Part shown: positions 1,237-22,188 of the stretch, piece after piece
Layout: each line of letters begins with the position of its first letter
How positions within the stretch are numbered: the stretch's first letter is position 1
IMG/VR virus record: IMGVR_UViG_2706794673_000013
DNA from: a virus
Taxonomy: Duplodnaviria; Heunggongvirae; Uroviricota; Caudoviricetes
Direction: 5' to 3' (one strand)
Length of the DNA stretch: 47,589 nucleotides
Notes under the pieces: model-generated
The model's database searches: none
What the model saw: the letters and a program-made list of their open reading frames with translations, nothing else
What the model was told of the DNA's origin: nothing
Program-made: the position numbers and the translations under genes

Positions 1237-1237
1237 A

Positions 1238-1741: not shown

Positions 1742-1928
1742 GAACACCTCCATTATTATTTCCAGTGGTTCGTTTATTTCATCGTTCGAGTGCTTCTTTT
1801 TCACTTCCACCATAACCGGTTCGGGATTCGCATCCGTTACACTTCGCTCGGTAATATCCTGAAATGGCTTTCACCGTTACTGATGGACAACCACAAAATG
1901 GACATGGTTTAACATTGTCATATCTCAT
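1734..1928 (-). pseudogene. ralR: ralR/lar-like restriction alleviation gene interrupted by an in-frame TGA (codon 50)
   Basis: Minus-strand translation MRYDNVKPCPFCGCPSVTVKAISGYYRAKCNGCESRTGYGGSEKEALER then TGA at 1779-1781, after which the same frame continues NKRTTGNNNGGVHV to TAA at 1734-1736; Cys-rich zinc-ribbon-like N-terminus. Confidence 0.5.
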
Positions 1929-1983
1929 AATTTTTCTCATAAAAATATTTCAAGTTGGCGGTGCATTACACCGCCAGGCTGAA

Positions 1984-5386: not shown

Positions 5387-5487
5387 TGTTTTTTAACCTC
5401 AACTCAGATTAAAATTCGTTTTGTTCAGTGAATGATCTTGCCGGATACACACTGTTCATAGCCTGCGCCATACGCAGGCTATTTCTT

Positions 5488-5763
5488 TCAGATTTCACCT
5501 TTTAATTTCATTGCAATTAGAGTTGCCAGAAATTCGGCTTTTTTTTCTGCGGGCAGATTCTTTCCGATATGCACCAGGCACATTTTTTTGACACCTTCAT
5601 CAAGTGTTTTTACGTTGCCTGATGGACCATCGATATCAACCACAGTGAATGGGGTTTCTTTATTTTCTGTTTTAATTACGTAGCCAATGCGCTTTCCTTC
5701 CAGATTCACCTCGTGAACAATGTCATCGGTAGTTACAACAGTGGCTTCATAATTGGTAATCAT
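5488..5763 (-). CDS. racC: RacC protein
   Basis: 91-aa product from internal Met (MITNYEATVVTTDDIVHEVNLEGKRIGYVIKTENK...); recognised Rac prophage RacC. Confidence 0.8.
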   Translation of the reverse strand: MITNYEATVVTTDDIVHEVNLEGKRIGYVIKTENKETPFTVVDIDGPSGNVKTLDEGVKKMCLVHIGKNLPAEKKAEFLATLIAMKLKGEI

Positions 5764-5837
5764 GTTTTTCTCCTTAATTAAGGTTGAGCGAATACCTGCC
5801 ATTTCTGGCATAAATTCAGTTTCGAATAGTCAATTAA

Positions 5838-6008
5838 TTAAAGTTCATGTGCCATCTGGTCTTTTTCGGCACAAGCTTCACTGCAATATTTTCTCGGTTC
5901 GTCTTTTGATAAAATCCCGTGCATGAAGTGAAGCATTCTTTCAATAGCTTTGCTTTCTTCAACGTCTTTTTTGCAAAGGTGGTAAGCACATTTTATTTTC
6001 TTAGTCAT
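5838..6008 (-). CDS. ydaE: Small Cys-rich protein YdaE
   Basis: 56-aa ORF below the 60-aa track cut-off, found by manual translation ([56 protein letters not shown]); start ATG overlaps kilR stop (TGATG). Confidence 0.8.
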   Translation of the reverse strand: MTKKIKCAYHLCKKDVEESKAIERMLHFMHGILSKDEPRKYCSEACAEKDQMAHEL

Positions 6009-6229
6009 CACCATGACTCCGCCTTTACAGGTAAACCATCACGACCGAGGAAGACTTTAATCATGCGGTCAGTAATGCATGTTTTTGTGGTCAGGTTACG
6101 AATATATAGTTTTCGCTTTTTAATATTGTTTGCCGAGGCAATATATGTCCGGCCTTCATGAAGAACATAATCGCCAGGAGTCACACACTGACGTGGTATT
6201 TCATCAGTTCCGAAGTGATGTGCAATCAT
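6008..6229 (-). CDS. kilR: KilR cell-division (FtsZ) inhibitor
   Basis: 73-aa product from Met5 of the ORF ([29 protein letters not shown]...); recognised KilR; a start at 6241 is also possible. Confidence 0.85.
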
Positions 6230-6670
6230 AATTATCTCCATTTTTACAAATGAACTTTGTTGATGCGGTGCCTGGTGCCTCCAGGTGACTGCAACCAGTT
6301 AACAATTACAGTCGGCTTTCCCACCCAAACCAATAAGGACTAACATGACTTTTAACTGTGCCACGTGCGCTTAGCCGCATTCACCGCATCACAAAATTCA
6401 CTTTAAAAAGGGCGGACATCAGCCGAACTTCAAGAAAAAAACTGATGCCGCCAGGACTACACACAGCAATGTCGTTATTTACAACCGGAGGCGCACTCCC
6501 ACCATTTAAATTTAACAGACAAGACCGACTCTTTATGGATATCGGAAATGCGCCTTCGTGTTGTGCCCGGTTTTATTTCACCACCTCCGGGCTTCGGTGG
6601 TCTCGGCTATACCCCTACAGCGAGAGCTTGTGTTAACATTTCAATACCCTTACAGTTGAGAGTTATTGAT

Positions 6671-7159
6671 ATGTTGGATGTATTTACTCCATTGTTGAAA
6701 CTTTTTGCTAACGAGCCACTCGAAATACTTATGTATACGATTATCATTTTTGGTCTCACTCTCTGGCTGATACCGAAAGAGTTTACTGTCGCATTCAATG
6801 CTTATACTGAAATACCTTGGCTCTTTCAGATTATCGTTTTTGCCTTTTCTTTCGTGGTCGCCATTTCCTTCTCAAGATTGCGAGCACATATTCAAAAGCA
6901 TTATTCATTACTACCAGAGCAACGAGTATTGCTTCGTTTATCTGAGAAAGAAATCGCTGTATTTAAAGATTTCCTTAAAACAGGAAATCTTATTATCACT
7001 TCTCCTTGCCGTAACCCGGTTATGAAAAAATTAGAACGGAAGGGCATCATTCAACATCAGAGTGATAGCGCAAACTGTTCTTATTATCTCGTCACCGAAA
7101 AATACTCCCATTTTATGAAGTTATTCTGGAACAGCAGGAGTAGACGTTTTAATCGTTAG
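6671..7159 (+). CDS. sieB: Superinfection exclusion protein SieB
   Basis: 162-aa product from internal Met (MLDVFTPLLKLFANEPLEILMYTIIIFGLTLWLIP...), hydrophobic N-terminal segment; recognised SieB. Confidence 0.85.
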   Translation: MLDVFTPLLKLFANEPLEILMYTIIIFGLTLWLIPKEFTVAFNAYTEIPWLFQIIVFAFSFVVAISFSRLRAHIQKHYSLLPEQRVLLRLSEKEIAVFKDFLKTGNLIITSPCRNPVMKKLERKGIIQHQSDSANCSYYLVTEKYSHFMKLFWNSRSRRFNR

Positions 7160-7311
7160 CTTACTGTGTGCTTCTCCAACCATCGGCGCGCACCAGTTTC
7201 GGTTTTAAATGTTTTGCTTTTGGTATACGTCATGGCAGTGAACGTTCCATCCTGGTTGGGGAACACGCCGCACACCAGGGATTCGTTGTTGCCGAGGTCG
7301 ATTTTTTGCAT
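7156..7311 (-). CDS. ydaG: Small protein YdaG
   Basis: 51-aa ORF below track cut-off, found by manual reverse translation (MQKIDLGNNESLVCGVFPNQDGTFTAMTYTKSKTFKTETGARRWLEKHTVS). Confidence 0.75.
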   Translation of the reverse strand: MQKIDLGNNESLVCGVFPNQDGTFTAMTYTKSKTFKTETGARRWLEKHTVS

Positions 7312-7321
7312 TTTGCGAATC

Positions 7322-7456
7322 TCACATCTTGTTGCTGTGTATAGCGACTTCTGCCTGCCAGAGATCCCAGTCGTTGCTGCGTAAAGCCTGCACAGCCTGG
7401 TTGTAAGTGATACCGCAACAATCCATCAAATACTGAACTACTTCGTAATGCACCAT
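7322..7456 (-). CDS. ydaF: Small protein YdaF
   Basis: 44-aa product (MVHYEVVQYLMDCCGITYNQAVQALRSNDWDLWQAEVAIHSNKM) with strong SD AAGGGGAG upstream; first gene of the leftward early operon. Confidence 0.75.
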   Translation of the reverse strand: MVHYEVVQYLMDCCGITYNQAVQALRSNDWDLWQAEVAIHSNKM

Positions 7457-7599
7457 CTTATCTCTCCCCTTAACGCCGGGTGGCGGAACTGAAACCTGCT
7501 GCACTGCAAAATCTGAACCCTGCCGTCATGTTCATACGCCTCGGGCTGGCTACTTAACCCCTGACCACTGCCTGGTAACTCGAAGTATTGCCCTGCGTT

Positions 7600-7690
7600 C
7601 TGTGGGGCGGGGTGGGTTGGTAGGTATATAATGTACTTTGTGTTCATTGATGTAAAGTACTATAAGTACATTTTGTGTGTAAAAAAATGA
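7600..7690 (-). promoter_or_regulatory. Leftward early promoter/operator region (OL-like) with ATGTACT-type repeats
   Basis: Between repressor stop and ydaF start; minus strand shows TTTACA ... ATTATA promoter-like hexamers; motif AATGTACTT and its reverse complement occur (7629-7638, 7664-7675). Confidence 0.4.
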
Positions 7691-7746
7691 GATGGGATAA
7701 AGTGAAGCACAAACCCGGAGGGGGACGCTACCGGATTTATGCTGGT

Positions 7747-8184
7747 TTAAGAGGCTTTTTGTTTTTTCTTTCGTGCTAGCTCTTCGTAAATTGCATTGTA
7801 CTTCTGTTTTTTCTCCTCAAGAGTTTTTAAAAGTTCATCTGTCTCACTGTCAGGGAGCTCGTCCAGAAGGTCAATGATGATTTTTTGTCTTGGATTTAAC
7901 TCCTGATAGAAACGTACCTGTCCACTTTCTTCTGTATCCTCTCCCAAAAGATAGGTTGGTGTTGTTCCAATGAGTGTTGCTAATTCCCTTAATTTCTCTC
8001 GGCGAGGAATTGTTTCGCCATTAAACCATTTGCTAACCGCTTTTGGTGTTAATTTCATTCGACGGGCAATTTCTGCCTGCCTTCCATGTTGTTCATAACC
8101 AGCGTTTTCACAGGCTAGCGCAAGCCTACTGGCGAACTCTTTACGCGCTTTATCTTCATGAACCATAAGTTCAATGATATTCAC
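7747..8184 (-). CDS. XRE-family HTH prophage repressor (RacR-position)
   Basis: 145-aa ORF with an HTH-like segment (...QAEIARRMKLTPKAVSKWFNGETIPRREKL...) and a charged C-terminal tail; divergently transcribed from a Cro-like gene; start could be 8184 or 8163. Confidence 0.7.
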   Translation of the reverse strand: MNIIELMVHEDKARKEFASRLALACENAGYEQHGRQAEIARRMKLTPKAVSKWFNGETIPRREKLRELATLIGTTPTYLLGEDTEESGQVRFYQELNPRQKIIIDLLDELPDSETDELLKTLEEKKQKYNAIYEELARKKKQKAS

Positions 8185-8245
8185 TCTTGAATGTACTGTC
8201 AGTTCTGTTATAGCATGTACTCAAAGTTCACATTGTGAGGGTGAT
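8164..8245. promoter_or_regulatory. Divergent immunity promoter/operator region (OR-like)
   Basis: 82-nt intergenic region between divergent repressor and cro-like genes; TTGAAT (-35-like) and TATAGC (-10-like) on plus strand; ATGTACT motif at about 8191-8197 and 8213-8219. Confidence 0.45.
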
Positions 8246-8500
8246 ATGAACCAGAAAACACTTGAAGATGTAATCAAAACTGTTCGCGTTTCTGTTGTGG
8301 CCGACGTTTGTGGTGTCAGCCAAAGAGCAATCTACAAATGGATGGATAACGGAAAATTGCCTCGCACAGAATATACCGGCGAAACAAATTACGCTGAAAA
8401 AATCGCTCATGCATCAAACGGATTATTTTCTGCTGATGTAATTTTAACTATTGGCAGAAATAAAACTACTACGAAAAAGCTGATGGGAGTTGATTCATGA
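8246..8500 (+). CDS. Cro/YdaS-like small HTH regulator
   Basis: 84-aa product from ATG 8246 preceded by GAGGG; HTH-like segment (VCGVSQRAIYKWMDNGKLP); stop overlaps ydaT start. Confidence 0.6.
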   Translation: MNQKTLEDVIKTVRVSVVADVCGVSQRAIYKWMDNGKLPRTEYTGETNYAEKIAHASNGLFSADVILTIGRNKTTTKKLMGVDS

Positions 8501-8919
8501 AAATCAAGCATGAGCACATCGAGTCAGTGTTGTTAGCCCTGGCAGCCGAAAAAGGGCAGGCATGGGTAGCCAATGCCATTACTGAAGAATATCTGCGCCA
8601 GGGGGGCGGCGAATTGCCCCTGGTACCAGGCAAGGACTGGAATAATCAGCAGAATATCTATCACCGTTGGTTGAAAGGTGAAACGAAAACGCAAAGAGAA
8701 AAAATTCAGAAGCTGATCCCAGCAATTCTGGCAATCCTTCCGCGCGAGCTGCGTCACCGACTCTGCATCTTCGATACCCTGGAACGCCGTGCATTACTGG
8801 CGGCGCAGGAAGCGTTAAGTACGGCAATTGATGCGCATGATGATGCAGTCCAAGCCGTTTACCGGAAAGCGCATTTCAGCGGCGGCGGGTCTTCCGACGA
8901 TTCTGTCATTGTTCATTAA
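8497..8919 (+). CDS. ydaT: YdaT (toxic partner of the racR-ydaS-ydaT module)
   Basis: 140-aa ORF (MKIKHEHIESVLLALAAEKGQAWVANAITEEYLRQGGGELP...); recognised Rac YdaT. Confidence 0.85.
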   Translation: MKIKHEHIESVLLALAAEKGQAWVANAITEEYLRQGGGELPLVPGKDWNNQQNIYHRWLKGETKTQREKIQKLIPAILAILPRELRHRLCIFDTLERRALLAAQEALSTAIDAHDDAVQAVYRKAHFSGGGSSDDSVIVH

Positions 8920-8931
8920 GCAAAAGTTTCC

Positions 8932-9789
8932 ATGCTGTTTGTGCTTATTCTAAGCCACCGGGCAGCATCATACGGGGCAATTATGGCCGCATTACCATAC
9001 ATGCAACTGTACATAGCTGATTACCTGGCTGACACCATGCATTTGTCAGCAGAGGAGCATGGTGCGTATTTGTTGCTGATGTTCAATTACTGGCAAACAG
9101 GAAAGCCAATACCTAAAAACAGGCTGGCAAAAATTGCCCGTCTGACTAACGAGCGATGGGCTGATGTTGAACCATCCTTGCAGGAGTTTTTTTGCGATAA
9201 CGGCGAGGAATGGGTGCATCTTCGGATTGAGGAAGATCTGGCATCAGTCAGGGAAAAATTAACCAAAAAATCAGCCGCAGGAAAAGCATCTGTTCAGGCC
9301 AGAAGAAGCAGAAAGGAAGCAGATGTTCAAACAAAACAAGAGAGAAATTTAACAGGTGTTCAAACAGATGTTGAAGTGGTGTTTGAACATGATGTCAACA
9401 CAAAGGCAACTAATAAAGATACAGATAAAGATCTAAAAACAGATCCCCCCCTAAATCCCCCCCGGGGGAATCGAGGTGTCAAAAAGTTTGACCCTCTGGA
9501 TATTGCTTTGCCGAACTGGATTTCTGTCTCGCTTTGGCGTGAGTGGGTTGAATTTCGCCAGGCATTGCGAAAACCGATTCGAACGGAGCAGGGCGCTAAC
9601 GGGGCGATACGGGAGCTGGAAAAATTCCGCCAGCAGGGTTTTTCACCTGAGCAGGTGATTCGACACAGCATCGCCAATGAATACCAGGGCTTGTTCGCGC
9701 CGAAAGGTGTTCGACCTGAGACGTTACTCCGACAGGTTAACACCGTCTCGTTACCGGATAGTGCGATCCCGCCAGGCTTCAGGGGGTAA
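8932..9789 (+). CDS. ydaU: YdaU (DUF1376, replication-associated)
   Basis: 285-aa ORF (MLFVLILSHRAASYGAIMAALPYMQLYIADYLADTMHLSAEEHGAYLLLMFNYWQ...); recognised Rac YdaU. Confidence 0.85.
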   Translation: MLFVLILSHRAASYGAIMAALPYMQLYIADYLADTMHLSAEEHGAYLLLMFNYWQTGKPIPKNRLAKIARLTNERWADVEPSLQEFFCDNGEEWVHLRIEEDLASVREKLTKKSAAGKASVQARRSRKEADVQTKQERNLTGVQTDVEVVFEHDVNTKATNKDTDKDLKTDPPLNPPRGNRGVKKFDPLDIALPNWISVSLWREWVEFRQALRKPIRTEQGANGAIRELEKFRQQGFSPEQVIRHSIANEYQGLFAPKGVRPETLLRQVNTVSLPDSAIPPGFRG

Positions 9790-9795
9790 CTGACC

Positions 9796-10542
9796 ATGAA
9801 AAATATTGCGACAGGCGACGTTCTTGAACGTATCCGCAGACTGGCCCCGTCACATGTAACCGCGCCATTCAAGACGGTAGCGGAGTGGCGCGAGTGGCAA
9901 CTTTCCGAAGGCCAGAAACGTTGTGAGGAGATCAACCGTCAGAATCGTCAGTTGCGGGTGGAAAAAATTCTGAATCGCTCTGGCATCCAGCCATTGCACC
10001 GCAAATGCTCGTTTTCGAATTACCAGGTGCAGAACGAAGCGCAGCGATACGCGTTGAGTCAGGCGAAATCCATCGCTGATGAACTGATGACCGGGTGTAC
10101 AAATTTTGCGTTCAGCGGAAAACCTGGTACCGGGAAGAACCACTTAGCGGCAGCTATCGGGAATCGCCTGCTGAAAGACGGTCAGACAGTGATTGTGGTT
10201 ACCGTGGCTGATGTTATGAGTGCCCTGCACGCCAGCTATGACGATGGGCAGTCAGGCGAAAAATTTTTGCGGGAACTATGCGAAGTGGATCTGCTGGTTC
10301 TTGATGAAATTGGCATTCAGCGCGAGACGAAAAACGAGCAGGTGGTGCTGCACCAGATTGTTGATCGCCGGACAGCGTCGATGCGCAGCGTGGGGATGCT
10401 GACAAACCTGAACTATGAGGCCATGAAAACATTGCTCGGCGAGCGGATTATGGATCGCATGACCATGAACGGCGGGCGATGGGTGAATTTTAACTGGGAG
10501 AGCTGGCGTCCGAATGTCGTCCAGCCAGGAATTGAGAAGTAA
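9796..10542 (+). CDS. ydaV: DnaC-like replicative helicase loader (YdaV)
   Basis: 248-aa ORF with Walker A ([11 protein letters not shown]) and Walker B (LLVLDEIG) motifs of the IstB/DnaC AAA+ family. Confidence 0.9.
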
Positions 10543-10564
10543 TTTTTACCGGGAGGAAATTTTT

Positions 10565-11326
10565 ATGGAGACTGTTTTTGACGCACTGAAAGCAATGGGA
10601 AAAGCCACATCCATAGAACTTGCTGCGCGACTTGATATCAGTCGTGAAGAAGTGCTGAACGAACTATGGGAACTGAAAAAAGCTGGTTTCGTTGATAAAA
10701 GCGCGTACACCTGGCGTGTGGCTGATAACAACGTTCAGCAGGAACAGCCAATGCAGGCAGAACTGCCGGAAGAAACCACCACGGCAACTGTAGTGAAAAT
10801 CTCAGAGTGCGATTTAACCGCGACGATTGAACAACGCGGACCACAAACGGCGGATGAACTGGCTACGCTGTTCGGTACAACATCCCGCAAAGTTGCTTCA
10901 ACGCTGGCAATGGCAATCAGCAAAGGACGCCTGATTCGCGTAAACCAGAACAGTAAATTTCGTTACTGCATGCCGGGCGATAATTTACCAGCAGAGCCGA
11001 AAGCTGCATCGGTAGCGGAAACTGATGGTAAAGCCTTTCCTCAGCCAGCCGGTGTTGCGTTACCAGTACAGGAAGCGGCAACACAGGAAGATATTAAAAC
11101 AGAAACTGTGGCGGACATTGTGCAGTCGCTGCCATCGTTTACTGAAACGCAAGCGGATGACCTAGTTTTACCATCGCTGCATATGGCAAACCGCGAACTG
11201 CGTCGGGCGAAAAATCATGTCCAGAAGTGGGAGCGAGTCTGCGCCGCGCTGCGGGAGCTGAACAAGCACCGGGATATTGTCCGACAGATTGTCGATTCCT
11301 CCAGTCGTATTGTGTCGGAAAAGTGA
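10565..11326 (+). CDS. YdaW-like protein (full length)
   Basis: 253-aa product from ATG 10565 ([13 protein letters not shown]...) preceded by GGGAGGA; N-terminal winged-helix-like segment. Confidence 0.6.
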
Positions 11327-11341
11327 TTGCCGGAGGCGCTT

Positions 11342-11758
11342 ATGGCAAAAGTTTTTACACAGGAAGAGCGTGAAAAAATTAAGGAGCAGGTTGTTGAGTT
11401 GGTACGCCAGAGTGGGCGCGAGACGTTAAGGCAACTGGAGGCCAAGACAGGTGCGACAAGATATCTGATGAGCATTCTTGCCAGAGAGTTGGTTGCCAGT
11501 GGCGATGTATACAACTCTGGCTATGGGTTATTCCCGTCTGAACAGGCTCGTAAGGATTGGAAAAACGCCCGCAAAAAACTATCCAGGGCAAAGGTGAAAA
11601 AAACGGTTGTGGTTGATCCTGACCTTATCTGGTCATTACCAGACGGAGAAATACGCCGCTATGACAGGCGTCAGAACATAATCTGTCGCGAGTGCCGGAA
11701 GAGTGAAGTTATGAAACGTGTACTGGCATTTTATCAAGGAAATCTTCGGTATTTATAG
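11342..11758 (+). CDS. Hypothetical protein
   Basis: 138-aa ORF from ATG 11342 (MAKVFTQEEREKIKEQ...) with GGAGG SD; basic C-terminal half with a CxxC pair (CRECRK). Confidence 0.5.
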   Translation: MAKVFTQEEREKIKEQVVELVRQSGRETLRQLEAKTGATRYLMSILARELVASGDVYNSGYGLFPSEQARKDWKNARKKLSRAKVKKTVVVDPDLIWSLPDGEIRRYDRRQNIICRECRKSEVMKRVLAFYQGNLRYL

Positions 11759-11957
11759 ACGTTACTAGATCAAAGAGCATTAGTTCATATGTAAATTGAC
11801 ATTTTTCTGGCACAGGGGAGAGCTAGCGTGGTTGTCCGCTTTGTGCCAATAGCGGACATTGCTGGCTCATGGTATGTTAGTTTAAGGAGGCAGGTTATGC
11901 CCTGTATTTCGCTGTGGTATAATAGTTGCGCAATTGATACAAGGGAGCGTTACATCG

Positions 11958-12919
11958 TGAAAATTGTTTTCGAGGTTAATGGAAAGAAAGTTCCACTAAA
12001 ATCTTTAAAATACATAAGCAAAAAAGATCAACTCGAAGTAATGAAAAACTGGTTCTTTGAAAACTTTGAAGATCCGGCAAATGCTTGTCCGTATGAAAGT
12101 AGAGAAGGTGGCTATGCTTACATATATGGCGGGCCGTATGATGCGAGCGAAGAACTACAATCCATCTTCGGTCAATATGTTAAATCTGAGTATATTGAGG
12201 AATTAGTAGATGAATTACAAACACAATGTTTTGACTGGTCTGGAAACTCAAATAATATAGATGATTGGTACGATGATGATATCTACGACGCTGTAACGTC
12301 TTCCGGTAATCCGTATTTAAAATTCATTGATAATATCGATAAAATAAAAAAACTTGCAAAAGATAAAACTGAACAACAGCAAAAAAACCACTTGCTTAGT
12401 TTGCTCTACACGAATGTTATTACAGCTTTGGAAACGCTTTATGTTGAGCTATTCATTAATTCTATAGAGAAAGATGATGTCTACATAGCCAATTGTATAG
12501 AAAAAGGTAAGACTGAATTTAAAGTAAGCAAAGATATTGCTGCGTTGCCTTTCAAGGGTGAACCCATCGAGAAAATTAGGGGAGAGCTAATCAGGTCAAT
12601 CAAGGAACACTTGATCAGTGCAAGCTGGCATAGCACTAAAAAGGTAATCGACCGCTATGAAGCTACATTCGATATAAAAGTACAAAAAGACTGTCCGATA
12701 GAAGCTATTGAATTGGCAACCCTCAATCGAAATCACTTAGTGCATCGTGGTGGAAAGGATAAAGAAGGGAACCTCGTAGTGATTACAGACCAGGATCTTG
12801 AAACGCTGATTGAAAATGCATCGAACCTGGCAATTATGCTCTACAACAGTTTAAATGTAGCAACGAATAAAACCACCATTTTGCAACCAGATGACAAACC
12901 GTTCATTCATGAATTTTAA
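11958..12919 (+). CDS. Hypothetical protein A of AT-rich cassette (candidate defence/abortive-infection protein)
   Basis: About 320 aa from GTG 11958 preceded by AAGGGAG (alternative ATG at about 12041); visibly AT-rich, K/N/I/D-rich codon usage unlike flanking phage genes; R-x4-H motif (RNHLVH) near C-terminus. Confidence 0.55.
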
Positions 12920-12934
12920 TAGCGCAGGTCATAC

Positions 12935-13936
12935 ATGGATATTCGCACACGAAAGACAAAATTTTTAGAGTCGTTAGATTCAACTGAAGTGATACGCAAA
13001 GCAGTAAGTCTCGCTATAGATTGCATTATTGATAATCATAATAGTAATGAAGATACCCCCTTAGTTATTACCAGCTATGATGATCTCTGTAGAATCCAGG
13101 TGCTAAATTATGTACAGGAGTTTTGCGAAGCTGCATTCCCTGATATGGATGAATATTACTTTAGTCCTAACATACTTCGCATCAACGGCAAGACTAGTGA
13201 AGAAGCTTGTATTAACTTAATTAAACTCTTAAGAAGTACAAAAGGCATGCTATTCTGGTCCGATGCCCCATCGTGGTTCGCTAGCCTCCCCGACGGATTA
13301 TTCCATGTTGTTAACATTGATCAAAAAATCGTTACTCGCGGCCTTAATAAGAAAAACTCTAAGCCGACAATAATCAATAAAGATTACAGTGTAGATACAC
13401 TACTATCAGAGCTATTTTTGAATGGCGCACACATGGAGCAACCCAACGTACACAACGTTTCTGAGGGAAACATGAAGTTCTATGATGAATGCCATGCTGG
13501 ATTAATCAGACCAATACCCGCTCCAATAGGCGCGTCATACGATGAAGAGATCACAATTAATTCTCCAGATTGGCAAAAGCTCGCGTGTGTAGCTTTACGC
13601 CGCTATCAGTCGAAGGAATGTCATGACGGAATGCAATGGGATACAACCGATCATGGTTGGACTGATGTAATCGCGTATCCATTCGTCGAAGAAATACAAT
13701 CAATGGATAATAGTGGTTATCGACAATGTTTAGTTGGGCTGGTCACAATAAACAATTCAAATGCAAATTCTCCGTACCTATCTACCGTTTGGATACATCC
13801 ATTTTATCGCAGGAGAGGGTTATTAAGTAAGTTATGGCCAAAATTACAAGAGTTATATGGAAGTAACTTCGAAATTGAGCGACCTAATGAAAATATGAAA
13901 GCATTTCTGAAAAGTGCGAAACACGCAGATTACTAA
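12935..13936 (+). CDS. Hypothetical protein B of AT-rich cassette (possible GNAT-like C-terminal domain)
   Basis: 333-aa ORF 15 nt downstream of protein A, same strand and same AT-rich composition; C-terminal segment CLVGLVTINN...VWIHPFYRRRGLLSKLW resembles the GNAT acetyl-CoA binding motif. Confidence 0.55.
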   Translation: MDIRTRKTKFLESLDSTEVIRKAVSLAIDCIIDNHNSNEDTPLVITSYDDLCRIQVLNYVQEFCEAAFPDMDEYYFSPNILRINGKTSEEACINLIKLLRSTKGMLFWSDAPSWFASLPDGLFHVVNIDQKIVTRGLNKKNSKPTIINKDYSVDTLLSELFLNGAHMEQPNVHNVSEGNMKFYDECHAGLIRPIPAPIGASYDEEITINSPDWQKLACVALRRYQSKECHDGMQWDTTDHGWTDVIAYPFVEEIQSMDNSGYRQCLVGLVTINNSNANSPYLSTVWIHPFYRRRGLLSKLWPKLQELYGSNFEIERPNENMKAFLKSAKHADY

Positions 13937-14113
13937 TTTATGAATCAGTCTGTGGAGTTAGGGTTGGTGTGAACAAGTAGGGTAAGAGCCTCAACGTGAT
14001 GCTATGCCGACCTGCTCCCTGAGAATTCACACAGAAGGCTGCTAGCAATGTCTGCAGATCGCTCAAAGCGGACTAAAATGTTGGCTTGTTTCTGACTTAG
14101 AGCATTTAAGGAA

Positions 14114-14338
14114 GTGCTGGTGGTGACTGGTTGTTGTGTTCCATTTCTACAGAATAAAATCACAGAAACTATACCCAATAGTTGTATTGAATCACTGACG
14201 AGACAGCCTCATATTTATCAGGACTGGTGTGCGTCTAATACAGGGGGTTGTCGTGCTGGTTCTCAAATGTGCGCTGGCTATTGCGGCTGTAATGGCAATT
14301 TATTGTCTTGCTGTTGTTCTTATGGAGCGGCTTTCTGA
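14114..14338 (+). CDS. Small Cys/Gly-rich ORF (possible peptide; may be non-coding)
   Basis: 74-aa GTG-initiated ORF ending ...CRAGSQMCAGYCGCNGNLLSCCCSYGAAF; poor SD spacing; no family recognised. Confidence 0.2.
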   Translation: MLVVTGCCVPFLQNKITETIPNSCIESLTRQPHIYQDWCASNTGGCRAGSQMCAGYCGCNGNLLSCCCSYGAAF

Positions 14339-14556
14339 TTGATTACATACTGGCTAGAAAAAAGGTGTTACCTTGGTTTATCTTTGTCCGGCAAGGTGCG
14401 CTCATTAATCTTAAGTAAATTTATTGCTCAAGTATTCAGATTACTTCTTATGGTTGAAGTCTCCTGTCAATGTAGAACCAATATATTTACAAAAATGAGA
14501 CCCGTCGGGGATAGCCCTGCCGGGTCTGACTGTTAAAGCATTTTTAATATGATCAT

Positions 14557-14895
14557 CTATTTTTTGGTGCTATAGACTTTTTCGCCCGAAAAGTCTGGAG
14601 CGACCCAAAAGTTAATATTAAACTGAGCATCATCGCTTAGTTCAACACGGTGCCAGTATTGTGGTGGGCTTGTTGCAAAAGCGCCAGCATTAATGACTAC
14701 TTTTATCTCCGGTTCAGTAGCATTCTCATCAGTAAAACCATAATATGTTACAGTGCCTTCCATTACGCACAACTGCCCAAAAACACCTGCTGCTGTATTA
14801 TGATGTGTTAATAACGCTGAAGGTACGTTCTCTTTTGTGAAGAACGGAGTTGAGCGTTTGATTACCCAATCTTTAGGAATTCTCTTGTGTGTCAT
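14557..14895 (-). CDS. YeaR-like DUF1971 protein (tellurite-resistance-associated family)
   Basis: 112-aa product from internal Met with GGAGGAGG SD; RSTPFF...GVFGQLCVMEGTVTYYGF...YWHRVELSDDAQFNINFWVAP resembles E. coli YeaR. Confidence 0.65.
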   Translation of the reverse strand: MTHKRIPKDWVIKRSTPFFTKENVPSALLTHHNTAAGVFGQLCVMEGTVTYYGFTDENATEPEIKVVINAGAFATSPPQYWHRVELSDDAQFNINFWVAPDFSGEKVYSTKK

Positions 14896-15720
14896 AACCA
14901 CCTCCTCCAAAACATGCATTAAAAATGCATCTTTTGGAGGGTTATGTCAAGCTGTTATGAAACACATAATTGATATGTTGATTAGAGGAGAAGATAGAAT
15001 AAATATGGTTGTTTTTCGTATAACTATTTGTTTTACTTTTAGTTTATGCATTCTGTGTGTTNNNNNNNNNNNNNNNNNNNNNNNNNNNNNNNNNNNNNNN
15101 NNNNNNNNNNNNNNNNNNNNNNNNNNNNNNNNNNNNNNNNNNNNNNNNNNNNNNNNNNNNNNNNNNNNNNNNNNNNNNNNNNNNNNNNNNNNNNNNNNNN
15201 NNNNNNNNNNNNNNNNNNNNNNNNNNNNNNNNNNNNNNNNNNNNNNNNNNNNNNNNNNNNNNNNNNNNNNNNNNNNNNNNNNNNNNNNNNNNNNNNNNNN
15301 NNNNNNNNNNNNNNNNNGAAATATGATTCCAGCAACTTATCATGTGGCTACTTTATAAAAATAATGCCCATATAAAACAACAAGCGAAAAGGATTACGGA
15401 TAAAAAAGGAGCGAGATGTGCGAACTTGTTATTTTCCATGTTTAACCACCTTAAATAATTGATGATGACGGGATGATNNNNNNNNNNNNNNNNNNNNNNN
15501 NNNNNNNNNNNNNNNNNNNNNNNNNNNNNNNNNNNNNNNNNNNNNNNNNNNNNNNNNNNNNNNNNNNNNNNNNNNNNNNNNNNNNNNNNNNNNNNNNNNN
15601 NNNNNNNNNNNNNNNNNNNNNNNNNNNNNNNNNNNNNNNNNNNNNNNNNNNNNNNNNNNNNNNNNNNNNNNNNNNNNNNNNNNNNNNNNNNNNNNNNNNN
15701 NNNNNNNNNNNNNNNNNNNN

Positions 15721-16320: not shown

Positions 16321-16610
16321 TGGTGAATTTACGTAAAGCGGCTAAAGGCCAGATGTGCCAGATCAGAATCCCTGGCTACTGCAATCACAATCCCGAAACC
16401 TCTGTGCTGGCGCATTACAGGCTGGCGGGGACGTGCGGAACAGCGACAAAACCACATGATATGCAGGCGGCGATAGCCTGTAGCTCATGCCACGATCTAA
16501 TCGACGGGCGGGTAAAAACCAGCGATTACACCAAAGAAGAATTGCGCCTGATGCATGCTGAAGGGGTTTTTCGCACACAAGAAATCTGGAGAAAGAAAGG
16601 TCATTTATGA
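16320..16610 (+). CDS. DUF1364-like Cys-rich small protein
   Basis: 96-aa ORF with C/H-rich segments (CQIRIPGYCNH ... CSSCHDLIDGR); overlaps neighbours by 1-4 nt. Confidence 0.55.
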   Translation: MVNLRKAAKGQMCQIRIPGYCNHNPETSVLAHYRLAGTCGTATKPHDMQAAIACSSCHDLIDGRVKTSDYTKEELRLMHAEGVFRTQEIWRKKGHL

Positions 16611-17149
16611 TTTACCCAACGAATACAGGAAAAAGCGGAGAACACCTTCGCCTCACCACGCTGGAAAGTGTCTGGATTCAGGGAAAACTACGTATGTGGG
16701 GGCGCTGGTCGTATATTGGCGGTGGCAGGTCAGGGAATATGTTCAATCAGTTGTTGGCATCCAAAAAACTGACGAAAACAGCCATTAATGAAGCCCTGCG
16801 CAGAATGAAAAAAGCGGGAATAGAGAAAGCTGAGCTGGAAGCGTTTTTGCGAGAGATGATCAACGGCAAGCAAAAGAGCTGGCTGGCGCATTGTACTGAT
16901 GCAGAGGCGTTATGTATTGATCGAGTCATAAGTGAGGTGCTGGCAGAGCATCCAGGATTGATTTGCATTCTCCGGCAACGCTATGAAGGGCGGGGGATGA
17001 CTAAGCGCAAAATGGCTGAATTGCTAAATGATGCACACCCAGAGTGGTGTTTTAGCACATGCGAAAAACGGATTGCTAATTGGTTAGCTGTTGCTGAGTA
17101 TGCCCTATATATTCCCATGCGTGAATCATTTGCTGAGAAAATGGCTTGA
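16607..17149 (+). CDS. Putative late-gene antiterminator (Q-like)
   Basis: 180-aa ORF at the position of Q, directly upstream of intrinsic terminators and the late/lysis genes; family assignment by position and general resemblance only. Confidence 0.55.
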   Translation: MIYPTNTGKSGEHLRLTTLESVWIQGKLRMWGRWSYIGGGRSGNMFNQLLASKKLTKTAINEALRRMKKAGIEKAELEAFLREMINGKQKSWLAHCTDAEALCIDRVISEVLAEHPGLICILRQRYEGRGMTKRKMAELLNDAHPEWCFSTCEKRIANWLAVAEYALYIPMRESFAEKMA

Positions 17150-17257: not shown

Positions 17258-17577
17258 CGTCAGGAAAGCAGGGGAGAATGCTGCTAGTTGGGCAACTGGT
17301 CTTTCTGCTCCAAATTATAACAGAGACCAGTTATAGTTTCGGTGCTGTGTTTTTTTTACAATATTGTGATAACACATTGCTGGCGGGAGTTTTGATATTT
17401 CTTGGCAGGGGCTGATGATGCGTTATCCTGATGTCGTCAACTCATATAAAATGAGATGAGAGATCATTGCAGGGTGGTTTGTAATTCGCTGTTTAGCGGG
17501 ACAATATGTTGTCTGATACAAGACACCCGACGCCTCAGATTACTATAATAAAGACGAAGCATCCTTTGTATTGACCA

Positions 17578-17603
17578 ACCGCCTGTTTAGGCGGTTCTTT
17601 TTG
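17578..17603 (+). terminator. Intrinsic terminator (tR'-like) about 30 nt downstream of a TATAAT box
   Basis: Stem ACCGCCT / AGGCGGT with GTTT loop followed by CTTTTT; TATAAT at 17544-17549. Confidence 0.5.
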
Positions 17604-18193
17604 GGCTGGTTTATTGTATGCCAAATGATTATTAAAAAGGTTGTGTTAATAACAAGATCCGAAATAATATGCCTGCATATTTTTATCTTGCTTATATTCT
17701 GCATATTGTGCATAGCAGGCTCATCCCTGCAATCAAAACTGTATGATGAGTATTTTTTGTTTTCCTTTTTTCCAGTCATCTGATGATGACCTGCTTCTTT
17801 TTAATCCGGATCGACATCAGTTTTTTAAGATAATTCCTGCGAGTTATATGCATAAATGCCACAAACTCCGCATTTTATGTGGTTGGGAGTTGCCGGGCGC
17901 GCAGTGAGTTTGCTAAGAAAACTCCTGCATGGTGAATCCCCCTGTGCGGTGGGGTGATACCATTAACCTTTTCTGTCGCCGACAGGTATCACGAACATTT
18001 TGTTCACCGGGAGGCACCCGGCACCATGCACTTCAATAGATTCTCTCCACATTATGGATATTCTTTCAGAATATCCCACGCAGACTTTGTGTAAATGTTA
18101 ACAAATGTGCGTTTTATTTGATCTGATTCGCTGTTTGAGCGTCCAAAACAACGGTATATATAATCCTTTACTATATGACATATGTGAGGAAAA

Positions 18194-18622
18194 ATGGGTT
18201 TTCGTAGCGCATCAATTCTTACGTTGATTATTAGTGGGATTATTATCGGGTGCACTGATGCTGTATCGACAAATTATCATGACCGTACATCATATTACTC
18301 CGATAAAGCAATAGAGACACAGTATGTGAGTTCATCTGAACGTACTTCTGATGTTAGTGAGGATATCCGTCTGTATGCCCATCAAATCAAGAGCGCCATC
18401 GAAAAACAGTTCGGGGATGCGAGTAAGTATTCAGGAAAAGAGTGTACACTGAGAATGCATATGGCCCCGAATGGCCTTCTACTGGAGGTTAAAAGAGAAA
18501 GTGGAGACCTCGATTTATGTCGTGAAGCGATGAATGCGATAAAGAATGCTGATATACCTGCCCCCCCTTCGCCGGAAGTATATAAAGTATTTCAAAATGG
18601 GGTGCTGGATTTTAAACCCTGA
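18194..18622 (+). CDS. Lipoprotein with TolA C-terminal domain (domain III)-like region
   Basis: 142-aa ORF with signal peptide and lipobox (IIIGC); C-terminal 80 aa (IKSAIEKQFGDASKYSGKECTLRMHMAPNGLLLEV...PEVYKVFQNGVLDFKP) closely parallels the C-terminus of E. coli TolA as recalled; SD GAGGA upstream. Confidence 0.75.
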   Translation: MGFRSASILTLIISGIIIGCTDAVSTNYHDRTSYYSDKAIETQYVSSSERTSDVSEDIRLYAHQIKSAIEKQFGDASKYSGKECTLRMHMAPNGLLLEVKRESGDLDLCREAMNAIKNADIPAPPSPEVYKVFQNGVLDFKP

Positions 18623-18772
18623 TATTTATTGTTTTGTAATAAACGGTTTCGGCTTAGGTTTGTTCTGACACAGCTACGGCACTGAGCTAAATTTAGCGGA
18701 TAGTCAGCTCTGAGCCAGTGGCGGACGTAACAACTACTATTGCTGAGATTTTAATGGATTGAGGAGCAAGAA

Positions 18773-19168
18773 GTGGGATTAAAGAAAATCGTTATGTTGA
18801 CTTTTTGGGTCGGTTTTGTTGCGGGATGCACACCTTTACACCCTTCAGATTGCCACAAAACTACTGCTACAGGTAGTTGCAGTTCAGGACGCTGGGATGA
18901 TCAGGATGAATGGGGGGCGCAAGCGCGGGGAATCAGAGCTGCAATTAATGCCAAACTTGATGAGCCGCATAACTGGAAAGGGAAAAAATGCAGGTTGCAT
19001 ATGGAATTCTCTCAGGATGGCACGGCGTTAAAAATATCTACCAGTAACGGTGATAAAGCCTATTGCGAAGCGATAAAGTCCGCAGCTCATAAAGCCAAAT
19101 TTCCGGCCTTCAACAATCCGGAAGTCTACAGAGATTTTCAGAAATCTGGCTTTGACATGCGAGGTTAG
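18773..19168 (+). CDS. Lipoprotein, paralogue with TolA-CTD-like fold
   Basis: 131-aa GTG-initiated ORF (SD GAGGAG), lipobox FVAGC; C-terminal region aligns with the upstream lipoprotein (KKCRLHMEFSQDGTALKIS...CEAIKSAAHKAKFPAFNNPEVYRDFQKSGFD). Confidence 0.65.
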   Translation: MGLKKIVMLTFWVGFVAGCTPLHPSDCHKTTATGSCSSGRWDDQDEWGAQARGIRAAINAKLDEPHNWKGKKCRLHMEFSQDGTALKISTSNGDKAYCEAIKSAAHKAKFPAFNNPEVYRDFQKSGFDMRG

Positions 19169-19419
19169 CTCTTCAATTACTATATCTCATTCATAGCAAA
19201 CTGACAGATTTGATGATGTTCTATATACGAAACCTGTGATGTCAAGTCTGAGCTAATACAAATAAACATAATATCAGAGAAATACATTTTATTAGCTCGC
19301 TACGGCGAGCTTTTTATATTGCATCGTCTCCAGCATATATATCAATTAAGGCTCTGATTGATGTGTCTGAAAGCCTACACATAATAACTATGCCATCCGT
19401 TCCGTGCGGAGGTGAGGCT

Positions 19420-19635
19420 ATGAAATCCATGGACAAAATTTCAACAGGCATTGCCTACGGCACCTCCGCAGGCAGTGCTGGCTACTGGTTTTTACAGTTG
19501 CTCGATAGAGTAACTCCGTCACAGTGGGCTGCAATCGGTGTGCTGGGTAGTCTGGTATTTGGCCTGCTGACGTACCTGACAAACCTTTATTTCAAGATTA
19601 AAGAAGATAAGCGCAAGGCTGCGAGAGGTGAATAA
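19420..19635 (+). CDS. Class II pinholin (S21/EssD-like) with dual-start motif
   Basis: 71-aa product [29 protein letters not shown]... with two TMDs; Met1 and Met4 give the antiholin/holin dual start; SD GGAGGTGAGG. Confidence 0.85.
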
Positions 19636-20132
19636 TGCCTCCATCATTACGAAAAGTCGTTGCTGCTGCTATTGGTGGCGGAGCAATTGCTATAGCATCA
19701 GTGTTAATCACTGGCCCAAGTGGTAACGATGGTCTGGAAGGTGTCAGCTACATACCATACAAAGATATTGTTGGTGTATGGACTGTATGTCACGGGCATA
19801 CAGGAAAAGACATCATGCTCGGTAAAACGTATACCAAAGCAGAATGCAAAACACTCTTGAATAAAGACCTTGCCACTGTCGCCAGACAAATTAACCCGTA
19901 CATCAAAGTCGATATACCGGAAACAACGCGCGGCGCTCTTTACTCATTCGTTTACAACGTGGGTGCTGGCAATTTCAGAACATCGACGCTTCTTCGCAAA
20001 ATAAACCAGGGCGATATCAAAGGCGCATGTGATCAGCTACGTCGCTGGACATATGCTGGCGGTAAGCAATGGAAAGGTCTCATGACTCGTCGTGAGATTG
20101 AGCGTGAAATCTGTTTGTGGGGTCAGCAATGA
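19635..20132 (+). CDS. SAR endolysin (lysozyme, R21-like)
   Basis: 165-aa ORF with N-terminal signal-anchor-release segment ([20 protein letters not shown]) and lysozyme-like core; ATG overlaps holin stop (TAATG). Confidence 0.85.
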
Positions 20133-20593
20133 ACAGAGTAACCGCGATTATCTCCGCTCTGGTTATCTGCATCATCGTCTGCCTGTCATGGGCTGTTAAT
20201 CATTACCGTGATAACGCCATTACCTACAAAGCCCAGCGCGACAAAAATGCCAGAGAACTGAAGCTGGCGAACGCGGCAATTACTGACATGCAGATGCGTC
20301 AGCGTGATGTTGCTGCGCTCGATGCAAAATACACGAAGGAGTTAGCTGATGCGAAAGCTGAAAATGATGCTCTGCGTGATGATGTTGCCGCTGGTCGTCG
20401 TCGGTTGCACATCAAAGCAGTCTGTCAGTCAGTGCGTGAAGCCACCACCGCCTCCGGCGTGGATAATGCAGCCTCCCCCCGACTGGCAGACACCGCTGAA
20501 CGGGATTATTTCACCCTCCGGGAACGACTGGTAATGATGCAGGCCCAACTTGAAGGTGCTCAGCAATACATAACCGAGCAGTGTTTAAAGTAA
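20129..20593 (+). CDS. i-spanin (Rz)
   Basis: 154-aa product from ATG overlapping endolysin stop; N-terminal TMD plus coiled-coil periplasmic domain. Confidence 0.8.
20349..20534 (+). CDS. o-spanin (Rz1), embedded in +1 frame of Rz
   Basis: 61-aa ORF wholly inside Rz in another frame; signal peptide, lipobox (VVGC) and Pro-rich mature part ([15 protein letters not shown]). Confidence 0.7.
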
Positions 20594-20730
20594 AATCTTA
20601 ACTACAATATGATTCATTTTGATGATTGTTTCATAAGGAACAGTGAAGTAAGATCTAAGAGGAGTTAAATTTTATACAGTATAATCATAATATTGCAGCA
20701 AGGTGGTTATAATTGAAAGAATATTTAGAT

Positions 20731-22188
20731 ATGAATACATCTCATGTAAGAGTTGTTACTCATATGTGTGGGTTCCTGGTTTGGCTCTATAGTCTTTCAA
20801 TGTTGCCACCAATGGTTGTAGCATTGTTTTATAAAGAAAAAAGCCTGTTCGTTTTCTTTATAACTTTCGTTATATTTTTTTGCATTGGTGGCGGAGCGTG
20901 GTATACAACTAAGAAATCTGGCATTCAATTACGTACCCGTGATGGGTTTATTATAATTGTAATGTTTTGGATTTTGTTTTCTGTTATTAGTGCATTCCCT
21001 TTATGGATTGACTCAGAACTTAATTTAACGTTCATTGATGCTCTGTTTGAAGGGGTTTCTGGAATAACAACAACAGGAGCAACTGTAATTGATGATGTTA
21101 GTTCATTACCTCGGGCATATTTGTACTATCGGTCACAGTTAAATTTTATAGGTGGTTTAGGAGTTATTGTTCTGGCGGTTGCAGTATTGCCATTATTGGG
21201 TATTGGTGGTGCAAAGCTTTATCAGTCAGAAATGCCGGGGCCATTTAAGGATGACAAACTCACTCCCCGCCTGGCCGATACGTCACGGACACTGTGGATA
21301 ACTTATTCTTTATTAGGTATTGCTTGTATTGTCTGTTATAGACTTGCAGGAATGCCTTTGTTTGATGCTATTTGTCACGGGATTTCCACAGTTTCGCTTG
21401 GTGGTTTCTCAACTCATAGCGAGAGTATCGGATATTTTAATAACTATTTGGTTGAGCTGGTGGCTGGTTCTTTTTCCCTGCTATCGGCTTTCAACTTCAC
21501 TCTTTGGTATATTGTTATTAGCAGAAAAACGATAAAACCTTTAATCAGAGATATTGAACTTCGTTTCTTTCTGTTAATAGCCTTAGGGGTGATCATTGTT
21601 ACCTCTTTCCAGGTCTGGCATATAGGTATGTATGACTTGCATGGAAGTTTTATTCATTCGTTTTTTCTTGCCAGCTCCATGCTCACTGATAATGGTTTAG
21701 CTACGCAGGATTATGCAAACTGGCCCACGCACACGATAGTGTTTTTGCTGTTGTCAAGTTTCTTTGGGGGATGTATAGGTTCAACCTGTGGTGGAATTAA
21801 GTCACTTCGATTTCTTATACTTTTCAAACAAAGCAAACACGAGATAAATCAGCTTTCTCATCCCAGAGCGTTGTTGAGTGTAAATGTAGGAGGGAAGATA
21901 GTTACAGATCGTGTAATGAGGTCTGTATGGAGTTTCTTTTTTCTTTATACTCTCTTCACGGTGTTTTTTATACTGGTGTTAAATGGTATGGGATATGATT
22001 TTCTTACATCATTTGCAACAGTGGCTGCATGTATTAATAATATGGGATTAGGTTTTGGGGCTACTGCATCGTCATTCGGAGTGCTTAATGACATTGCAAA
22101 ATATTTAATGTGCATAGCTATGATTCTTGGTCGCCTTGAAATTTATCCTGTTATTATATTGTTTTCAGGTTTTTTTTGGCGCTCCTAA
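20731..22188 (+). CDS. trkG: TrkG potassium uptake protein (Trk system membrane subunit)
   Basis: 485-aa polytopic membrane protein from ATG 20731 (MNTSHVRVVTHMCGFLVWLYSLSML...); recognised Rac TrkG; AT-rich relative to flanks. Confidence 0.9.
   Translation: MNTSHVRVVTHMCGFLVWLYSLSMLPPMVVALFYKEKSLFVFFITFVIFFCIGGGAWYTTKKSGIQLRTRDGFIIIVMFWILFSVISAFPLWIDSELNLTFIDALFEGVSGITTTGATVIDDVSSLPRAYLYYRSQLNFIGGLGVIVLAVAVLPLLGIGGAKLYQSEMPGPFKDDKLTPRLADTSRTLWITYSLLGIACIVCYRLAGMPLFDAICHGISTVSLGGFSTHSESIGYFNNYLVELVAGSFSLLSAFNFTLWYIVISRKTIKPLIRDIELRFFLLIALGVIIVTSFQVWHIGMYDLHGSFIHSFFLASSMLTDNGLATQDYANWPTHTIVFLLLSSFFGGCIGSTCGGIKSLRFLILFKQSKHEINQLSHPRALLSVNVGGKIVTDRVMRSVWSFFFLYTLFTVFFILVLNGMGYDFLTSFATVAACINNMGLGFGATASSFGVLNDIAKYLMCIAMILGRLEIYPVIILFSGFFWRS

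Follow-up and report, generated by a model that had tools for sequence, protein, structure and literature searches.

The stretch of DNA examined here, which we call the window, is the whole of IMG/VR virus record IMGVR_UViG_2706794673_000013 (47,589 nucleotides), a Rac-like prophage of Escherichia coli. Between its late-gene antiterminator and its holin gene lie two small genes, ORF1 and ORF2 (open reading frames 1 and 2), each of which encodes a short protein with a lipoprotein signal peptide at one end and a complete copy of domain III of the cell envelope protein TolA (TolAIII) at the other. An earlier sequence-only reading of this DNA had singled out the pair, and both frames are present on the + strand with the signal peptide and lipobox that it had described. 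The two genes and their ribosome binding sites are as follows.

18186-18190, + strand: Shine-Dalgarno sequence of ORF1, GAGGA, read from the sequence
18194-18622, + strand: ORF1, a 142-amino-acid predicted lipoprotein; ATG start at 18194, signal peptide residues 1-19, codon of the predicted lipid-bearing Cys20 at 18251-18253, TolA domain III at residues 55-142 (18356-18619)
18761-18766, + strand: Shine-Dalgarno sequence of ORF2, GAGGAG, 6 nt before GTG 18773, likewise read from the sequence
18773-19168, + strand: ORF2, a 131-amino-acid predicted lipoprotein; GTG start at 18773, signal peptide residues 1-18, codon of the predicted lipid-bearing Cys19 at 18827-18829, TolA domain III at residues 44-131 (18902-19165)

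The signal peptides were judged by a rule of the PROSITE PS51257 type, which calls for a positively charged n-region, a hydrophobic core and a lipobox of the form [LVI][ASTVI][GAS]C with the cysteine at position 15-35. Both proteins conform, ORF1 with MGFRSASILTLIISGIIIG-C20 (...IIIG-C20) and ORF2 with MGLKKIVMLTFWVGFVAG-C19 (...FVAG-C19), each with a K or R within the first seven residues, and so do 22 of 27 members of the ORF1 family and 115 of 119 members of the ORF2 family. The ORF2 start given by RefSeq and its Prokaryotic Genome Annotation Pipeline (PGAP), ATG 18794, leaves out the positively charged n-region and does not conform to the rule; in plasmid copies of the gene the codon aligned with GTG 18773 is ATG, which supports GTG 18773 as the true start. 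On plasmids, RefSeq over-extends the ORF2-type gene upstream to 143 amino acids. In E. coli, lipoproteins with a residue other than Asp at position +2 after the lipid-bearing cysteine are sorted to the outer membrane. That residue is Thr in both ORF1 and ORF2 and, because neither has Asp there, both are predicted to be lipidated and sorted to the inner leaflet of the outer membrane.

Between the predicted anchor and the domain runs a linker of approximately 25-35 residues, modelled with low confidence by AlphaFold2 (AF2) in both proteins and disordered in ORF1 up to about residue 54. The linker of the ORF2 family has the motif C-x-PLHPS-x-CHKTTA-x-GSCSSGRWDDQDEWG, which is near-invariant across genera and includes two extra cysteines; it could have a function of its own, for example as a disulfide-stapled or partner-binding segment, instead of serving as a passive tether. 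This conserved linker corresponds to residues 19-47 of ORF2 (18827-18913) and is shared by relatives P0048-P0166; its AF2 confidence is low nevertheless.

The presence of a complete, genuine TolA domain III in each protein is confirmed by profile, sequence and structure comparisons. Both exceed the 25-bit gathering threshold of the Pfam family TolA_C (PF06519), ORF1 with 82.6 bits (E=2.4e-23) and ORF2 with 54.6 bits (E=1.3e-14), and phmmer searches of PDB sequences retrieve the solved TolAIII chains (1S62, 3QDP, 2X9A, 1TOL) with E~5e-28 for ORF1 and E~5e-9 for ORF2. Residues 55-142 of ORF1 align with residues 334-421 of E. coli TolA ungapped to the last residue (52/88 identical, 59%), as does ORF2 at lower identity (27/82, 33%). 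The TolAIII cysteine pair GKxC...C (C363 and C388 of TolA) is invariant in the alignment of both families. Apart from residues 1-49 of ORF1 and 1-39 of ORF2, which have a predicted local distance difference test score (pLDDT) below 50, the AF2 models score above 90 and have the TolAIII topology; they superpose on solved TolAIII at 0.6-1.4 Å. The top PDB matches of the ORF1 model in Foldseek are E. coli TolAIII chains (2x9a_B, template modelling (TM) score 0.96, root-mean-square deviation (rmsd) 0.6 Å over 88 amino acids), and those of the ORF2 model are 3qdp and 3qdr (TM ~0.9, 0.91 for 3qdp; rmsd 1.1 Å). These matches include TolAIII in complex with the gene 3 protein (g3p) of If1 (2x9a_B), M13 g3p (1tol) and colicin A (3qdr), and TonB C-terminal domains rank far lower in both searches. 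The proposed likeness to TolA domain III was thus borne out by Pfam, phmmer and AF2/Foldseek, and a lack of structural similarity is excluded. The two motifs said to be common to the pair, K-x-C-x-L-x-M and PEVY..FQ, are present as KECTLRM and PEVYKVFQ in ORF1 and as KKCRLHM and PEVYRDFQ in ORF2, and the TolA C-terminal string quoted in that reading agrees with the actual alignment of ORF1 and TolA.

The remainder of TolA is missing from both proteins. Neither contains the transmembrane domain I, through which TolA is coupled to TolQ and TolR, or the helical, periplasm-spanning domain II; in their place are a lipoprotein signal peptide and a short linker, and without these two domains ORF1 and ORF2 cannot couple to TolQR. 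The NCBIfam TolA equivalog models are matched just over their last ~95 positions (293-386 of 387). On NF007065 both proteins fall below the cut-off of 213 bits (ORF1 107.8, ORF2 53.7), and on TIGR02794 ORF2 stays below the cut-off of 59.45 bits with 47.2 bits, while the 75.6 bits of ORF1 exceed it by a partial match only. Both fall in the PHROG family phrog_5772, labelled 'unknown function', and Pfam and PHROGs give otherwise just TolA_C. ORF1 and ORF2 are TolA-domain proteins, not TolA.

Database annotation treats ORF1 differently. In the intR...recET...kilR prophage of ECCHD184, which is collinear with the window at 639-8520 and from 15721 onward, RefSeq/PGAP records it as a 'tolA' pseudogene that is 'incomplete; missing N-terminus' (RefSeq feature L001 20463-20723 is among the annotation problems). 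We considered ORF1 as a tolA pseudogene and rejected this, as it is effectively excluded by the intact reading frame, the Shine-Dalgarno sequence, the lipobox, purifying selection and full-length relatives. Comparison with a 66%-identical relative gives ORF1 a ratio of nonsynonymous to synonymous substitution rates (dN/dS) of 0.36 over the whole gene and of 0.24 within the domain; for ORF2, compared with its plasmid copies, the ratio is 0.11, and full-length ORF1 relatives down to 65% identity retain the length, the lipobox and the domain. With dN/dS values of 0.11-0.36 and a conserved lipobox, the pseudogene call is wrong. The broader proposition that ORF1 is a dead tolA fragment and the pair functionless can appeal to that flag and to the match with just the last ~95 positions of the equivalog models, but we regard it as scarcely credible: the rule-conforming signal peptide and the selection on the domain speak against it, as do an identity to host TolA of 59% rather than near 100% and the recurrence of the architecture in at least 57 clusters at 50% identity. 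The practical consequence is for annotation, where the RefSeq 'tolA' or pseudogene label of ORF1 and an ORF2 start that strips the n-region of the signal peptide are both in need of correction.

The two genes had also been described as paralogous. They have the architecture and phrog_5772 in common, and in this loose sense the description holds; a recent tandem duplication does not agree with the data. ORF1 and ORF2 are 29% identical, and in a distance analysis of TolAIII domains the nearest neighbour of ORF1 is E. coli TolA and that of ORF2 is a group of other short lipoproteins. As ORF1 is closer to TolA than to ORF2, the pair are not recent duplicates.

The setting of the pair in the late region is defined by the following features.

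16607-17149, + strand: Q-like late-gene antiterminator, left border of the slot (PHROG phrog_753 'anti-termination protein Q-like', E=2e-79; Pfam DUF1133, E=2.5e-107; weak Phage_antitermQ match)
17577-17606, + strand: terminator-like hairpin with T-run 3' of Q, from a consensus scan (8-bp stem AACCGCCT/AGGCGGTT, then CTTTTTGGGC)
17897-18083, + strand: match to the STnc100 small RNA (sRNA) family in the non-coding gap 5' of ORF1 (Rfam RF02076, 86.6 bits against a gathering score of 47)
18135-18164, + strand: candidate sigma70-like promoter, 30 bp 5' of ORF1 (TTGAGC-18-TATAAT, 10/12 matches)
19294-19319, + strand: intrinsic-terminator-like hairpin 3' of ORF2 (AGCTCGC-TACG-GCGAGCT plus TTTTT)
19363-19635, + strand: holin, right border of the slot (ORF call; PHROG holin matches)
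19635-20132, + strand: endolysin (ORF call)
20117-20593, + strand: Rz (ORF call)
20349-20534, + strand: Rz1, embedded in Rz (ORF call)

The position between Q and the lysis cassette, where Shiga toxin (Stx) phages carry stx, was recognised correctly in the sequence-only reading: the Q-like gene lies to the left and the holin, endolysin and Rz genes to the right, and a 66%-identical ORF1-type gene occupies the same slot elsewhere. This relative, which is without ORF2, stands behind a Q of the PF03589 type and has a nanS-p-like esterase gene and a holin gene downstream, which we take to be the arrangement that follows stx in Stx phages. The lysis cassette spans 19363-20593, and its RefSeq names (essD, rrrD and 'lysis protein') were transferred from the 99.6%-identical collinear region of ECCHD184, whose gene names are used here solely within the collinear parts (639-8520 and 15721 onward). 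A non-coding gap of ~1 kb separates Q from ORF1 and contains the hairpin at 17577-17606, by its pattern a candidate late-leader terminator, as well as the STnc100 match, which may belong to the late leader or mark a hot spot of recombination.

The pair behaves as a mobile unit. Mosaic boundaries were mapped over 81 related loci (an IMG/VR scan gave 80 loci, all 99-100% identical to ORF1), and a common block from ~18000 to ~19630 holds ORF1, ORF2, the terminator and the holin. It is joined at ~18000 to different upstream regions in 40 of the 81 loci and ends at ~19620-19640 in roughly 40 of them, so that the cassette moves as one block with the holin gene. The left boundary lies inside the STnc100 match in half of the loci. 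Searches of phage GenBank records with DNA and protein found the pair in phage mEp460_ev081 alone, where the cassette sits behind a different Q. The pair is therefore located between Q and holin and is present or absent independently of the flanking modules, as expected of a moron. The sigma70-like site and the terminator downstream suggest that the genes may be expressed from the repressed prophage too, and in the diverged ORF1-type cassette strong terminator-like hairpins follow 180-260 bp past the stop codon.

Both types are common in E. coli, and ORF2-type genes extend well beyond phages.

ORF1-type: 888 of 5426 complete E. coli genomes (16%), almost all chromosomal
ORF2-type: 1269 of 5426 complete E. 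coli genomes (23%), with 825 chromosomal places and 525 on plasmids
ORF2-type on plasmids, I-complex and pO157-like loci: L003 5995-6426; L118, L119 and L120 3495-3926; L004 5995-6426

The ORF2-type gene belongs to the conserved backbone of I-complex plasmids (IncI1/B/O, IncK2/Z), where it is located 68 bp 3' of a nikB-type relaxase gene on the same strand; its place on pO157-like IncF plasmids is in the leading region, downstream of psiB-psiA-hok and upstream of toxB. Chromosomal copies occur at varied sites in Citrobacter, Enterobacter, Leclercia, Klebsiella, Raoultella, Serratia and others; among 25 such loci a LysR-type regulator alone recurs as a neighbour (10/25), and no operon partner was found. 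As ORF2-type genes are not phage-specific, their distribution speaks for a general role in host protection or in the envelope more than for one tied to the late operon. The earlier description of the pair as a late-operon moron is thus upheld for the slot and the mosaic block but does not extend to the ORF2 type at large, which is also a plasmid backbone gene and a chromosomal gene in other genera. A profile search of 1.8 billion cluster representatives returned 611 relatives. Among the best 150 of these, 96 are no longer than 170 amino acids, and 57 of the short ones of at least 110 amino acids have a signal peptide and lipobox; Asp at +2 is found in none of these 57 diverged lipoproteins. 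This architecture, still uncharacterised, is both large and diverse (at least 57 clusters at 50% identity) and reaches beyond one prophage. One diverged short TolAIII lipoprotein, P0194 (134 amino acids, L126 5001-5405), is on a metagenomic contig with many small same-strand ORFs and a T5orf172-domain protein, a context that is phage genome-like and not that of a lambdoid prophage.

TolA domain III is the docking point of group A colicins and of filamentous phages, including phages of the CTXphi type in other species. The translocation domains of these colicins and the N1 domain of g3p normally dock on it by beta-strand addition and are then pulled in. We propose that ORF1 and ORF2 are unenergised, outer-membrane-tethered decoys against Tol-dependent colicins and filamentous phages, a reading that we put forward tentatively, at slightly less than an even chance. 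The lipoprotein signal would export each protein, lipidation at Cys20 (ORF1) or Cys19 (ORF2) would anchor it in the inner leaflet of the outer membrane, and the flexible linker would suspend the domain in the periplasm. Having no domains I and II, it would transduce no proton-motive force and would be a dead-end partner. The translocation domains of group A colicins and related bacteriocins, as well as g3p N1, would meet the tethered copy first, near the outer membrane, and be trapped there, leaving the lysogen or plasmid host tolerant or resistant. Colicins E2-E9 promote contact between TolB and TolA (PMC7391070), and these might be blocked indirectly, by a decoy that sits on the TolB N-terminus and intercepts this contact.

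The binding surfaces of TolAIII bear on this proposal. TolB, colicin N and g3p share the beta3 edge strand by strand addition, and D418P and K420P abolish binding; g3p additionally contacts helix alpha2 (PMC4339652). Colicin A docks on beta2, at the box 375-LLDIKP-380 (PMC4339652; PMC7391070). Our comparison set was the 20 alpha2/beta3 positions mutated in PMC4339652, which had been chosen from crystal-structure contacts. ORF1 is identical to TolA at 14 of the 20; its beta3 strand is exactly that of TolA, LDFKP, which is the same across the ORF1 family, and its colicin A box reads LLEVKR. ORF1 is on this evidence a good candidate for binding the known TolAIII ligands, although such surface comparisons are suggestive only, because strand addition rests largely on backbone contacts (PMC4339652). 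Colicin N binds TolAIII at ~1 µM, whereas TolB binds it at ~40 µM (PMC4339652). As colicin N thus binds ~40-fold more tightly, invader capture would be favoured over Tol-Pal disruption, and a modest level of decoy could intercept invaders with limited damage to the Tol-Pal system.

The same surfaces also fit the main rival explanation, in which the tethered TolAIII binds the TolB N-terminus (possibly also CpoB) and competes with TolA, with less mobilisation of Pal, a looser outer membrane and more vesiculation as the effects. If transcribed mainly from the Q-dependent late promoter the pair would then aid lysis and release, and on plasmids and chromosomes it would tune the envelope. ORF1 retains the TolB-binding beta3 strand exactly, the cassette moves with the holin as a mosaic block inside the late operon, the copies on the chromosomes of other genera hint at an endogenous function in the envelope, and engineered periplasmic TolAIII leads to leakage of periplasmic proteins (PMC6195910). 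The weak TolA-TolB affinity of ~40 µM (PMC4339652) means that competition would require high expression. Additionally, the terminator-like hairpins after the gene in both cassettes are easier to reconcile with a self-contained unit than with a lysis gene, and homologues on plasmids and chromosomes lack a lysis context. Cells with a permanent tol-like defect would pay a price for it, yet purifying selection maintains the genes in 16-23% of E. coli genomes. This Tol-Pal modulation is compatible with a decoy function and fits the same data; as the explanation of the pair we consider it unlikely, though with a chance large enough to be taken seriously.

Several observations weigh against the decoy proposal. 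ORF2 is identical to TolA at 5 of the 20 target positions, has FDMRG in place of LDFKP in beta3 (the D418 equivalent is kept and K420 is replaced by R) and ALKIST in place of LLDIKP in the colicin A box, so that its binding to E. coli-specific invaders is doubtful. The chromosomal surroundings of ORF2-type genes in Citrobacter, Enterobacter, Leclercia and others are unremarkable, and the short TolAIII lipoprotein P0187 has an ordinary chromosomal context on a metagenome contig. The candidate promoter that would serve expression in lysogens is a consensus match only: sigma70-like sites are not more numerous in the region than in shuffled sequence, and the site is not conserved, the sequence upstream of the 66%-identical cassette showing no alignment with it. 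A TolAIII copy should bind TolB too, which makes a cost or another purpose plausible. Neither protein matches any model of PADLOC-DB 2.0 at E<=0.1, and full-text literature searches found no functional study of these proteins, the mentions being limited to entries in genome tables ('TolA protein, hypothetical protein' in PMC6854850). The divergence of the known-ligand surfaces in ORF2 also raises a different explanation, mainly for this protein, namely that the TolA/TonB-type C-terminal fold serves in it, as an envelope lipoprotein, to bind a different partner unrelated to the known TolA ligands, such as another outer-membrane protein or another invader. The linker with its two extra cysteines, conserved across genera, would be a functional element foreign to TolA, and the varied chromosomal sites of ORF2-type genes point the same way. 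Set against this are the TolA_C score of ORF2, well above threshold, its best structural matches, which are TolAIII and not TonB, and the tolerance of backbone-driven strand addition to sequence divergence (PMC4339652); we regard a different partner as rather improbable.

In favour of a host-protective accessory gene, and with it the decoy proposal, are the moron slot with a terminator-like hairpin of its own and the carriage of ORF2-type genes on I-complex and pO157-like IncF plasmids. The TolA-dependent phages If1 and Ff use I and F pili, respectively, as their primary receptors, which makes carriage on I-complex and F-like plasmids suggestive. The effect of engineered periplasmic TolAIII on the envelope (PMC6195910) and the protection that periplasmic g3p N1 gives against phage and colicin A (PMC10424213) serve as precedents. 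In a wider form, tethered TolAIII lipoproteins would be widespread co-receptor mimics, on prophages, I-complex and F-like plasmids and chromosomes, that confer broad bacteriocin tolerance and filamentous-phage resistance; this extension is possible, but we think it more probably wrong than right. If decoys of this kind exist, they could account for naturally occurring differences between E. coli strains in their sensitivity to colicins and Ff/If1 and would represent a simple and common mobile resistance determinant, present also on pO157-like virulence plasmids and I-complex resistance plasmids. They would be relevant to colicin competition in the gut, to bacteriocin and phage therapeutics, to phage-display hosts and to the question of how mobile elements benefit their hosts.

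Other features of the window complete the picture of the prophage.

1557-1735, + strand: RalA antitoxin sRNA (Rfam RF02694, 225 bits, full length)
20713-22188, + strand: trkG, potassium transporter gene, directly after Rz/Rz1

The RalA match shows the presence of a ralR/RalA toxin-antitoxin locus of the Rac type, by which the prophage is confirmed as Rac-like. The position of RalA contradicts a constant offset between the window and ECCHD184. The location of trkG after Rz/Rz1 is as in the Rac prophage of K-12; its GC content (0.377) is clearly below that of the neighbouring lysis genes (0.49), and the late region thus has a second accessory gene. Many Stx phages have tRNAs between Q and stx; no tRNA was found between Q and the ORF1-ORF2 cassette. 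A two-gene pair at 11828-13936 (+ strand), between the replication genes (DUF977) and the hok/DUF1367 region, encodes proteins of 363 amino acids, with a weak match to a HEPN/RES N-terminal domain (E=2e-4), and of 333 amino acids, with a weak GNAT match. It lies within 8520-15720, where the window and the ECCHD184 prophage do not align and where the ECCHD184 counterpart carries BCCT/MFS/LysR cargo. The two genes gave zero PADLOC matches and are possibly a cargo or defence pair.

Several known systems resemble parts of this one. With E. coli TolA domain III (1TOL, 2X9A, 3QDP/3QDR, 1S62; PF06519) the proteins share the fold, the C-terminal register and the cysteine pair, and ORF1 the identical LDFKP strand; they differ from TolA in lacking domain I, the long helical domain II and the tol-pal operon context, in having a signal peptide instead, and in their predicted anchorage, which is the outer membrane rather than the inner membrane of TolA. 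Annotation pipelines recognise the domain ('cell envelope integrity TolA C-terminal domain-containing protein'), and no curated family specific to the TolAIII lipoprotein architecture was found in NCBIfam, PHROGs or PADLOC. What is new here is a known domain in a mobile, lipid-anchored and energy-uncoupled form. One functional parallel is artificial: a fusion of the ribose-binding-protein signal to TolAIII, attributed to Levengood-Freyermuth and colleagues in 1993, reportedly makes cells colicin-tolerant. This engineered periplasmic TolAIII (Levengood-Freyermuth et al. 1993; Wan & Baneyx 1998) is a free periplasmic domain without an energy link, and it is reported to perturb the envelope and make the outer membrane leaky (PMC6195910); it is soluble, overproduced and artificial, whereas ORF1 and ORF2 are natural, predicted to be lipid-anchored, diverged and carried on mobile elements. 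In g3p-mediated exclusion, periplasmic g3p N1 sequesters TolA and protects from phage uptake and colicin A (PMC10424213). The interface of g3p N1 and TolAIII is the same, but there the ligand blocks the receptor, and here a copy of the receptor would absorb the ligand.

Small accessory outer-membrane lipoproteins of temperate or T5-like phages, such as Cor (phi80/N15/HK022), Llp (T5) and Bor (lambda), provide superinfection exclusion or serum resistance, Cor and Llp by blocking the primary receptor FhuA. ORF1 and ORF2 would resemble them as small accessory phage lipoproteins that protect the host envelope, with no sequence relationship to them, and we know of no phage lipoprotein that mimics a periplasmic co-receptor. 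If the proposal is correct, the pair would represent a new principle of exclusion, in which a decoy of the import machinery takes the place of receptor blocking.

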